A DNA stretch of 64,000 bases, taken from contig CAWJQC010000007.1 in the NCBI GenBank assembly GCA_963844965.1, positions 128,001 to 192,000 on the forward strand, in the 5' to 3' direction. The position numbers and the translations under genes were made by a program. Below are positions 52,885 to 54,648 of this stretch, in pieces (within the stretch, counting starts at the first letter, position 1; every line of letters starts with the position of its first letter). Source of the stretch: an uncultured bacterium (lineage in GTDB: Bacteria; Patescibacteriota; Minisyncoccia; UBA6257; 2-01-FULL-56-20). The notes beneath the pieces are model-generated. The model was not told the origin of the DNA. It worked only from the letters and a program-made list of their open reading frames with translations, and searched no databases.

Positions 52885-53033
52885 GCGTGTCTCACTGCGT
52901 TCGACACTATAGTTAAACAATTTTTCAGTTAACGAGTTGCGAGTTAACGAGTTGAAAACAAAAAACCCGTTAACACGTTAACTCTTTAACTCGTTAATAA
53001 TTAATTATTGGGTGGCGAGCGGAGCGAGGCACG
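52885..53033 (+). other. Intervening sequence C (helix 58 region), a member of the CGTGYCTCACTNNCGTTCGRCAC ... GAGCGGNGCGAGGCACG family
   Basis: Closing helix cgtgtctc / gaggcacg; interior gttaacgagtt repeats and their inverse. Confidence 0.65.
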
Positions 53034-53237
53034 TTGGAGGCCGACCGAAGGTTCGGTTTTTACCGGGCCGACGCAGGCGAAGAGCCTTCCAAGAAAAGCG
53101 CGGCGGTCACGCCGTAGAGAATCCGTACCGGAAACCGACACAGGTGGATTGGGCGAGAAGCCCTAGGGGAACGAGTGATTTGCCTCTAAGGAACTCGGCA
53201 AACAAGCGGCCGTAAGTTAGCAATATGGCCTGCCCGA

Positions 53238-53353
53238 CCGTGCCTCACTGCGTTCGGCGCGGAATTTAAAATTTTACAATTTTTAATTTTCAAACTGTTT
53301 GCAAAATTGAAAATTATATATTGAAAATTCCGCACGAGCATAGCGAGGTGCGG
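53238..53353 (+). other. Intervening sequence D (helix 63 region), same family
   Basis: Closing helix ccgtgcctc / gaggtgcgg (G-U compensated); interior aattttcaaa / tttgcaaaattgaaaatt palindrome. Confidence 0.65.
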
Positions 53354-54510
53354 TTGGGCCGCAGCGAAAGTCCCTTTGGCGACTGTTTACCAAAAACACA
53401 GCTCCCTGCGAACTCGCAAGAGGATGTATAGGGGGTGACGCCTGACCGATGCGAGAAGGTCAAGGCCGACGGTGCACGTAGCACATAGCATGTAACACAA
53501 AACAAGAAAAAATAAATAAAACCTGCTCCATGTTACATGTTGCGTGCTGCGTGTGCTGATTGGCTCAAGCCCTCGTCAATGTCAGCGGTAACTATAACCG
53601 TTCTAAGGTAGCGCAATTCCTTTTCGGGTAAGTTCCGAAGCGCACGAAAGGCGTAACGATCAAAGGACTGTCTCAGAGGCAAGCTCGGTGAAAATGCGAT
53701 TCCCGTGAAGACGCGGGATACCTGCAGCGGGACGAAAAGACCCCGGAAGCTTTACTGCAGCTTGGTATTGTTTCTAGGGCTTTGATGCGTAGCGTAGTGG
53801 GGAGCCTTTGAAGCTCCGCTCTCGGGCGGGGTGGAGGCGACAATGAAACACCCATCTTCAAAGTTTTAGCGACTAACCAGTTGGGGACCCTACACTCTCT
53901 AGATAAATTTTGGAAATCCAGAGAGTGTAGGGAAACCCAACCGGGACAGTGCTTGGTAGGCAGTTTAAATGGGGCGTTTTCCTCCAAAAAAGTAACGGAG
54001 GAGTTTATTAAGGTCGGCTTAGCCCGGATGGAAATCGGGCAGGACGTGCAAACGCAAAAGCCGGCTTAACTGCAAGGCCTACAAGCCGCGCAGATGCGAA
54101 AGCAGAAGTTAGTGACCCGACCACACATTATAGAATGGTGGGAGACACCGGACAAAAGCTACTCCGGGGATAACAGGCTGGTGAAGTCCGAGAGTCCCTA
54201 TCGACGACTTCGCTCGGCACCTCGATGTCGGCTCGGCACAGCGCGGGGGTGAAGAAGCTCCCAAGCGTTTGGCTGTTCGCCAATTAAAGTGCCACGTGAG
54301 CTGGGTTCAGACCGTCGTGAGACAGGTCGGTCTCTATCTGCTGCAGGCGTTTACACTTGAGGGGAGTTGGCCCTAGTACGAGAGGACTGGGCTGAACTGA
54401 CCTCTGGTCTACCGGCTTTGGTACCAACTGAAGCGCCGGGTAGCTATGTCGGGAAGGGATAAGCGCTGAAAGCATCTAAGCGCGAAGCCTACCCCAAGAT
54501 TAGGTGTAGT

Positions 54511-54648
54511 CGTGCCTCACTATCGTTCGGCACGGTATCGATGCAAATATACTAATCGTACTAATGATGCGAATTTGATTCCATTGGTATCATTAGCATT
54601 CACTTGCATATTGGTATCGATACTCGTGATGAGCGGCAGCGAGGCACG
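54511..54648 (+). other. Intervening sequence E (helix 98 region), same family
   Basis: Closing helix cgtgcctc / gaggcacg; interior palindrome gtatcgatgcaaatatactaat ... attggtatcgatac. Confidence 0.65.

Follow-up and report, generated by a model that had tools for sequence, protein, structure and literature searches.

The 23S rRNA gene in a 64,000-nt stretch of contig CAWJQC010000007.1 (positions 128,001 to 192,000; hereafter, the window), from an uncultured bacterium of the candidate phyla radiation (CPR; Patescibacteria), carries three insertions, here called elements A, B and C, in helices (H) 58, 63 and 98. Our analysis showed that these elements are members of a widespread family of CPR hairpins without open reading frames (ORFs). 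The members of the family have a common anatomy with covarying arms, lie in stable-RNA genes almost always in the sense orientation, have been copied within genomes and turn over between relatives. We consider it probable (roughly 0.6) that A, B and C, together with a degenerate copy in H45 of the same gene, are intervening-sequence (IVS)-type elements that are cut by RNase III in the RNA.

The host gene was delimited with Rfam (RF02541, 2254.7 bits, model positions 1-2925) at 50905-54743 on the forward strand, which all four elements share. Its length of 3839 nt against the 2925 positions of the model indicated approximately 900 nt of insertions, and about nine insertions were found in the alignment to the E. 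coli rrlH gene. The helices were assigned by reading this alignment against a published table of helices and coordinates (PMC2441807), and the assignment agreed with an earlier note on this DNA, which had placed three related insertions in H58, H63 and H98. Element A (148 nt, 52886-53033, basal arms at about 52886-52908 and 53011-53033) replaces H58, sitting between H57 and H59 in place of the intervening segment. Element B (114 nt, 53239-53352, basal arms at about 53239-53260 and 53331-53352) lies in H63, at E. coli positions of about 1707-1770, and has an extra C-G pair at 53238/53353. Element C (138 nt, 54511-54648, basal arms at 54511-54533 and 54626-54648) replaces H98, where it takes the place of E. 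coli positions of about 2791-2805. The ends proposed earlier differ from these core ends by no more than 1 nt, as they take in one additional flanking pair.

The 5' and 3' motifs recognized in the earlier note are present in all three insertions and form a basal helix of about 23 bp, 5' CGTGYCTCACT-nn(n)-GTTCGRCAC ... GTGGCGAGCG-RY-AGCGAGRCACG 3', within which the exact 13-mer CTCACTGCGTTCG is common to A and B. Each element folds as a single long hairpin (-59, -48 and -62 kcal/mol for A, B and C, respectively) with a common basal layout, in which stretches of 8-9, 2-3 and 5-7 bp are each followed by a mismatch (the first of them 1x1) and a variable stem comes last. The pairing of the termini, which had been claimed for every copy, was indeed found in every copy, but the compensation claimed for their differences amounts within the window to G-U wobbles, which are weak when taken alone, and true compensatory changes appear only in the family as a whole. 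The interiors are AT-rich, as had been noted (GC 0.14-0.34). Short tandem units had been described for the interiors in general; mirrored units of this kind, 7-8 nt long, occur in A (the 8-nt units AGTTAACG and AACTCGTT), in B and in the H45 insert, but not in the interior of C. The interiors of A, B and C are mutually unrelated (normalised similarity 0.08-0.16, equal to the background), so that the three elements, joined in one family by their shared bases, are not recent paralogues of one another as the word 'paralogous' in the earlier note might suggest. Some copies persist, because C is about 80% identical over its full length to the H98 copy in a Doudnabacteria metagenome-assembled genome (MAG; locus L102).

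Element B represents a 'type 2' variant of the family, with a 2-nt centre and G-U closing pairs, and aligns with the type-2 copies from loci L089 and L050. The insert in H45 (about 52483-52588, forward strand) had been recognized as a fourth element with the same layout, and its fold, its 7-nt tandem units and its end-to-end alignment with type-2 members bore this out. The AT-rich interior of the insert is related to that of B, with which it forms a direct repeat (75% over 53 nt), while its arms are degenerate and the conserved boxes are largely lost. On these features we take the H45 insert to be a decayed copy of the family.

We scanned one genome per species with the 5' motif as the query and obtained at least 120 loci, about half of which were chance matches; copies were kept only when the 3' arm was correctly paired, and at least 65 remained. 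An independent scan of metagenomes, with the 3' arm alone as the query, gave at least 121 matches, at least 79 of them with a paired 5' arm at a distance of 57-236 nt upstream. Among the 42 remaining metagenome matches listed, most were GC-rich coding DNA and a few were copies that were truncated at contig ends or had a diverged 5' arm. Together, the public scans yielded at least 144 copies of 50-236 nt beyond the window. Note that the search patterns favour canonical copies and that diverged variants exist, for example in locus L084. Long copies were sought by regular-expression and pairing scans; a covariance model of the basal helix (R1) was rejected as a finder of diverged long copies, since interiors of 100-200 nt are too long for it to span and the minimal copies are all that it recovers. 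No ORF was found in any of the 144 listed copies, none of which is longer than 236 nt.

The consensus of the family is 5' (Y)CGUGYCUCACU-NNN-GUUCGRCAC ... GUGGCGAGCG-RYA-GCGAGRCACG(R) 3'. In the metagenome set the 5' arm is near-invariant although it was not used for selection, with positions 2, 3, 7, 8, 10, 11, 15, 16, 17 and 22 identical in 57 of the 57 distinct sequences. The interiors are hypervariable and AT-rich, and the minimal copies (50-60 nt) consist of the basal helix and a small loop without any interior. A likeness by chance or convergence among three unrelated variable-helix extensions would agree with the motif counts in the window, which are only weakly and marginally above those of shuffled sequences, and with the unrelated interiors of A, B and C. 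However, 144 independent further copies pair both arms at the correct spacing and with near-invariant positions, which excludes this explanation for practical purposes.

The hosts of all loci have rRNA resembling that of CPR bacteria. Some of the host MAGs are labelled Gammaproteobacteria, Bdellovibrionales, Methylomirabilis or Bathyarchaeota, and we considered hosts outside the CPR. We rejected them, as seven of the eight 23S loci with such labels that were tested are only about 69-76% identical to E. coli and closer to the CPR-labelled loci. The eighth (L025) is 82.9% identical to E. coli over 251 nt, a short aligned stretch of a kind that does not discriminate. Judged by their sequences, the non-CPR labels are probably errors of binning or naming.

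In the alignment of 65 copies, 94% of the cells in the 21-pair basal helix are paired, and compensatory changes occur at eleven pairs (for example, CGUGCCUC/GAGGCACG to CGCUCCUC/GAGGAGCG or CGCAUCUC/GAGAUGUG). The observed values were reached by none of 500 shuffles, and slid registers are 27-50% paired; related copies in the set are not independent in these pairing and shuffle statistics. Some positions are conserved in sequence as well (U7-A48, C8-G47, A9·C46, U16·G39, U17-A38 and C18-G37, each in 64-65 of the 65 copies): U7-A48, C8-G47, U17-A38 and C18-G37 never vary, the U16·G39 wobble is kept in 64 of the 65 copies, and A9·C46 and R20·G35 are conserved mismatches. Columns 12-13, at the centre, often form an internal loop. 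The 3' strand carries two GCGAG boxes 10 nt apart, that is, about one helical turn, which puts both on one side of the helix. Covariation links column 5 to its partner in the long helix, column 50, and also to column 20, which the long helix leaves unpaired, indicating that the 5' arm can form a local hairpin too; this local hairpin may be a co-transcriptional intermediate.

Two resemblances of the module were rejected. The GUUCGA string as a mimic of the tRNA T-arm has no conserved flanking stem, and its position 20 covaries with position 5. The native H46 of the window (52605-52650) gave a marginal R1 match (E = 0.07), which hinted at where the module came from, but this match is absent from 11 other 23S loci and is probably a coincidence.

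As DNA, the arms are inverted repeats of about 23 nt with about 18 of 23 positions matching. They differ at fixed positions, so that G-U pairs of the sense RNA would correspond to A·C mismatches in the antisense RNA. Of the two strands, the sense strand has the more stable fold, both for whole elements (94 versus 20, P = 1e-13) and for the interiors alone (80 versus 34, P = 8e-6), and the covariance model of the basal helix gives the minimal copies 66 bits for sense and 42 bits for antisense. The more stable sense fold and the asymmetry of the strands indicate selection on the transcript and not on the DNA alone.

We mapped the sites of the copies by BLAST of their flanks to the E. coli rrn operon. 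Among the genome copies, 64 of 65 lie inside or beside rRNA genes, 63 of them in the sense orientation. The remaining genome copy (L083), at the edge of a contig and next to neither an rRNA nor any other RNA gene, could not be placed. All 77 of the 79 metagenome copies that lie inside or beside rRNA genes are in the sense orientation, and the other two are in P3 of RNase P RNA (L188, 11711-11882, forward strand, identified by Rfam RF00010; L133, 4553-4684, reverse strand). Both are sense copies that form or extend P3 immediately upstream of the conserved GGAGGAAAGUC, and because of them the family is not specific to rRNA. The proposal of one family spread over rRNA expansion sites was supported, and the family is much larger, with at least 144 further copies, but its preference extends to stable structured RNAs at large and is not for rRNA alone. 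Every placed copy is sense to its host RNA except the one in L079 (1923-2097), an antisense copy in 16S helix h6, which may have arisen by a genuine inversion or insertion or may be an artefact of the assembly.

The occupied sites comprise at least 12 positions in the 23S rRNA, two in the 16S rRNA, P3 of RNase P RNA, and the leader and trailer of the pre-rRNA. Those in the 23S rRNA are, in E. coli coordinates, about 130-180 (H9/H10), 227-233, 262-291 (H14-H18), 517-553 (H25), 644-668, 1105-1111, 1143-1186 (H45), H58, H63, 1851-1889 (H68), 2088-2224 (H78/H79) and H98. The others are the 23S leader and trailer, about 70 (h6) and 440-507 (h17) in the 16S rRNA, and the 16S leader. H9, H25 and H45 are the commonest sites. 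The occupied sites largely match the sites of E. coli rRNA that proved insertion-tolerant in experiments and the sites of eukaryotic expansion segments (PMC2441807). None of the 144 listed copies is in intergenic or coding DNA, with the one contig-edge copy unplaced, and no genuine copy was found in phage, plasmid or viral contigs by BLAST and the scans. A phage or plasmid vector was rejected, as the two matches in viral contigs are GC-rich coding DNA without the 5' arm.

The earlier note had left the choice between RNase III-processed IVSs and an element resembling a miniature inverted-repeat transposable element (MITE), and had proposed that abundant intergenic copies would mark a generic MITE; no such abundance was seen among the 144 listed copies. 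An ordinary DNA MITE, moved in trans by a transposase, without a role in RNA and merely tolerated in the variable helices of rRNA, would account for the terminal inverted repeats of about 23 bp, the short length without an ORF, the near-identical copies within a genome, the AT-rich interiors relative to the host and the one antisense copy. However, 141 of the 144 listed copies are in rRNA operons and two in RNase P RNA, about 140 copies are sense and one is antisense, and the fixed differences of the arms give G-U pairs in the sense RNA only. No target-site duplication was found, and at the outermost positions the two bases change together (C-G to G-C), unlike direct repeats; nor was an autonomous partner seen in the scans or a transposase in the window. 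Because of the restriction to stable RNA, the sense bias, the strand asymmetry and the lack of target-site duplication, a generic DNA MITE is disfavoured and in our judgement very unlikely. The evidence favours selection at the level of RNA.

The comparison of the interiors pointed to copying within genomes. The nine most similar pairs among 1891 pairwise comparisons are all intragenomic and lie in different helices. Locus L110 has three copies, at about E. coli 227, H25 and H45, with a similarity of at least 0.90, and L108 has copies in H9 and at about 230 with a similarity of 0.97. Pairs from L055, L084 and L011 are also among the nine, and a further one is on two contigs of a single MAG (L091, in 16S h6, and L083, the copy left unplaced at a contig edge). 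The relative closest to the window among those available (L084, 85% identity over the conserved 23S rRNA) has copies or variants at H9, about 271, H25, about 652, about 986 and H68, and no element at H58, H63 or H98. Presence in all relatives, which the earlier note had named, together with a lack of excision, as a mark of fixed expansion segments, was therefore not observed at the three sites. Filled and empty sites coexist in relatives whose flanks are 96-98% identical, and their comparison indicates that the element replaces the tip of the native hairpin and does not split its loop, while the element at about E. coli 230 is placed in a linker and supplies the stub itself. Copies more than 90% alike in different helices, together with the different sites in the closest relative, indicate that the family propagates and turns over.

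At the ends of the elements, the flanks continue the helix by one Y-R pair (Y at -1, R at +1), with no direct repeats and no target-site duplication. The CG dinucleotide was rejected as a 2-bp duplication, as positions 1 and 54 covary as a pair. Single-strand transposition of the IS200/IS605 or REP/RAYT kind was also rejected, since there is no conserved upstream target tetranucleotide and the two end-hairpin loops are complementary rather than identical. No transposase was found in the 64-kb window, and no copy longer than 236 nt was found among the 144 listed from the genome-contig and metagenome scans.

The same observations bear on whether the elements are expansion segments retained in the mature RNAs, with the basal helix as the binding site of a CPR protein common to the ribosome and RNase P. 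The archaeal protein L7Ae, which recognizes K-turns of rRNA, RNase P RNA and sRNAs alike, is an analogy. A basal helix that is conserved in sequence, the GCGAG boxes on one side of it, the same module in both rRNAs and RNase P RNA, and the minimal copies of 50-60 nt that keep the module only would all be expected of such a site. However, the variable occupancy between close relatives and the common empty sites argue against a structural need, the leader and trailer copies lie outside the mature RNA, the interiors are unconstrained in sequence, and no candidate for the protein has come to light. We regard retention as possible but rather unlikely.

The anatomy of the elements is that of IVSs. 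In classical IVSs, a hairpin whose two ends are complementary takes the place of the tetraloop of H9, H25 or H45, where RNase III cuts the stem midway and the stub joins the fragments (PMC4990558). A, B and C are likewise extended stem-loops replacing the tips of surface helices, their complementary termini form a long stem of 21-24 pairs (about 20-28 bp expected), and the elements are sporadic among relatives, as the different sites of L084 and the empty sites with 96-98% identical flanks indicate. CPR bacteria keep rnc (PMC12641178), and short ORF-less insertions in CPR rRNA have already been presumed to be of the RNase III type (PMC11270868), where a summary also reports that CPR rRNA insertions are removed from transcripts. 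The fit of the anatomy to classical IVSs, the retention of rnc and the prior presumption together favour excision by RNase III.

Each element consists of a conserved basal helix of 23-24 bp and a hypervariable AT-rich hairpin interior, absent from some copies, and sits at, or replaces, the tip of a surface-exposed helix of a stable RNA in the sense orientation. Elements spread within genomes by copying between unrelated helices, with fast turnover between relatives. In the transcript, the element folds as a self-contained hairpin, within which, under this reading, a double-strand-specific endonuclease, most simply RNase III, would cut; the interior would be discarded, and the basal stub would hold the RNA fragments together without religation. 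By analogy with the classical elements, cleavage by RNase III without religation is most likely.

Several points weigh against this reading. RNase III requires no conserved sequence. The 23S rRNA of the window has its own processing stem (50870-50893 paired with 54737-54760), in which no GCGAG box was found, so RNase III alone leaves the conservation of the basal sequence unexplained. Cutting every copy would split the 23S rRNA into several fragments, and RNase P RNA at P3. The covariation of columns 5 and 20 implies an alternative fold that a simple model does not need, and the scans and the window revealed neither a mobility enzyme nor a target-site duplication nor an autonomous copy. Finally, we infer cleavage and excision from anatomy and not from RNA. 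The invariant non-Watson-Crick features and the periodicity of one helical turn point to a specific reader, presumably a protein, as far as can be judged from sequence; the RNase III dsRNA-binding domain, another nuclease, a ribonucleoprotein and a mobility factor are candidates.

Such a reader is central to two further explanations. The elements could be a mobile RNA module for stable RNAs, whose basal helix is read by a CPR protein that splices with religation or mediates copying. The protein would recognize the invariant features, namely the pair of GCGAG boxes together with the A·C, U·G and R·G positions, and copying would be into exposed helices of abundant structured RNAs, maybe via an RNA intermediate. 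This would explain both the confinement to stable RNAs and the replacement, rather than interruption, of native tips, but we consider it unlikely. Alternatively, the elements could be introns spliced by a dedicated endonuclease, which would recognize the invariant basal features, and a ligase such as RtcB, and would be a bacterial counterpart to the bulge-helix-bulge introns of archaea. The non-Watson-Crick features, conserved and asymmetric, suggest a specific reader over generic recognition of dsRNA, repeated fragmentation could be costly with copies in RNase P RNA and at many rRNA sites, and the reported absence of CPR rRNA insertions from transcripts, as given in the summary in PMC11270868, would suit splicing as well. 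However, fragmented rRNAs are well tolerated in IVS-bearing bacteria (PMC4990558), and no endonuclease or ligase has been linked to the elements. The hallmark of the archaeal motif is two 3-nt bulges with a 4-bp helix between them at the exon-intron junctions. The elements have no such geometry; they have 1x1 mismatches at 9/46 and 20/35, a small central internal loop and no 3-nt bulges, and we consider protein-dependent splicing quite improbable. Group I and group II introns were rejected, as Rfam scans, at the gathering threshold and by E-value, gave only large-subunit rRNA and sub-threshold microRNA-hairpin noise. We retain RNase III-type intervening sequences as the preferred reading.

The surroundings of the elements in the window also contain other insertions and unusual genes. 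The 5S rRNA gene lies downstream of the 23S rRNA gene, with its own long flanking stem (54929-54970 paired with 55076-55117), and tRNA genes lie upstream. The rRNA operon is unlinked, as no 16S rRNA gene was found in the 64-kb window, which includes 50 kb of DNA upstream of the 23S-5S pair. The 23S-5S spacer (54761-54891) has a hairpin closed by a perfect 18-bp inverted repeat and holds CTCGCT/GGCGAG strings reminiscent of the boxes of the basal module. At about E. coli 650, the 23S rRNA gene holds a 284-nt insertion (51686-51969) enclosed by a perfect inverted repeat of 23 nt (51689-51711 with 51950-51972). This insertion is no member of the hairpin family; the 71-residue ORF inside it (51734-51949, reverse strand) gave no Pfam match, and the relative L084 holds a family element at the same site. 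Further hairpin-type insertions are at 51177-51285 (about E. coli 271-278), 51558-51575 (H25), 53470-53560 (H68) and 53880-53943 (H79), and the conserved basal module was found in none of these four.

Just 5' of the 23S rRNA gene, two genes (50508-50586 and 50718-50788) are both scored as tRNA by Rfam, but the anticodon loops that ARAGORN gives for them are abnormal (one of 4 bases, 'gttc', and one of 2 bases, 'gc'); they could be unusual CPR tRNAs or reflect indel errors. The leucyl-tRNA synthetase (1014 residues, 19151-22195, forward strand) has apparent inserted Ser_hydrolase (residues 244-400) and NUDIX (residues 582-678) domains. The methionyl-tRNA synthetase gene metS (15840-17276, forward strand) is in two ORFs, broken at an A-rich run, and mreB (42422-43465, forward strand) has a stop after 194 residues with an apparent continuation in other frames. 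These breaks are likely homopolymer indel errors of a long-read assembly, or pseudogenes. Because of these apparent frameshifts, small indel errors are possible within the elements too. The window also holds a serpin gene (7375-8763) and a split transketolase gene (4666-5526 and 6309-7325).

CPR rRNA genes very often carry short ORF-less insertions, which have until now been uncharacterised, and many of these are of one family. A defined module of about 23 bp turns this vague category into a testable object, and the motif can be used to annotate CPR rRNA genes, while the minimal element of 50 nt, at 2479-2528 of locus L038, is directly usable in assays of cleavage, binding and mutagenesis. The inserts lengthen CPR rRNA genes, may fragment the rRNAs, and have an effect on detection and assembly based on rRNA. 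The results also raise the questions of what reads the invariant non-Watson-Crick features and how the restriction to stable RNA arises.

CPR rRNA 'insertion sequences' have been described before (Brown et al. 2015; Tsurumaki et al. 2024, PMC11270868) as ORF-less, non-intron insertions of less than 200-250 bp in 16S and 23S rRNA genes, concentrated at known IVS sites. The present family almost certainly represents the same objects as these short insertions, which that work classes only as uncharacterised and presumed RNase III-type IVSs. Rfam has no family for these elements, the sequence strings of the module were in no searchable paper, and our literature search found no description of the shared module, of the kinship across sites, of its spread over 16S, 23S, leader and RNase P RNA or of intragenomic copying. 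It therefore seems that these elements have not so far been recognized as one family.

The family resembles the classical 23S IVSs of Salmonella, Leptospira, Coxiella, Campylobacter and alphaproteobacteria in its hairpins with complementary ends that replace the tips of surface helices (PMC4990558), as well as in its H9, H25 and H45 sites, a GC content below that of the host, a sporadic distribution and presumed processing by RNase III. It differs from them in a basal helix of conserved sequence common to one family, in its presence at 12 or more 23S sites, in the 16S rRNA, leader and trailer and in RNase P RNA, with several copies per gene, in copying between helices within a genome, and in the lack of an S23p/IVP ORF in any copy. 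Palindromic elements of Rickettsia and Correia elements of Neisseria are also short ORF-less palindromic repeats that survive where the host product tolerates them, with terminal repeats that form RNA hairpins; RNase III cuts Correia elements in transcripts, and their insertion makes a target duplication. Those elements occur across the whole genome, in either orientation and in intergenic as well as coding DNA, whereas the CPR family is in stable-RNA genes, in the sense orientation and without duplication. The expansion segments of eukaryotes and Asgard archaea have the same positions (h6, h17, H25, H45, H63, H78 and H98; PMC2441807) but are retained, fixed in lineages and without a common sequence module, whereas the CPR elements have a common module and rapid turnover. 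A hairpin module that is copied among helices of 16S, 23S and RNase P RNA, at sites of later eukaryotic expansion segments, offers a living model of how such segments are acquired.

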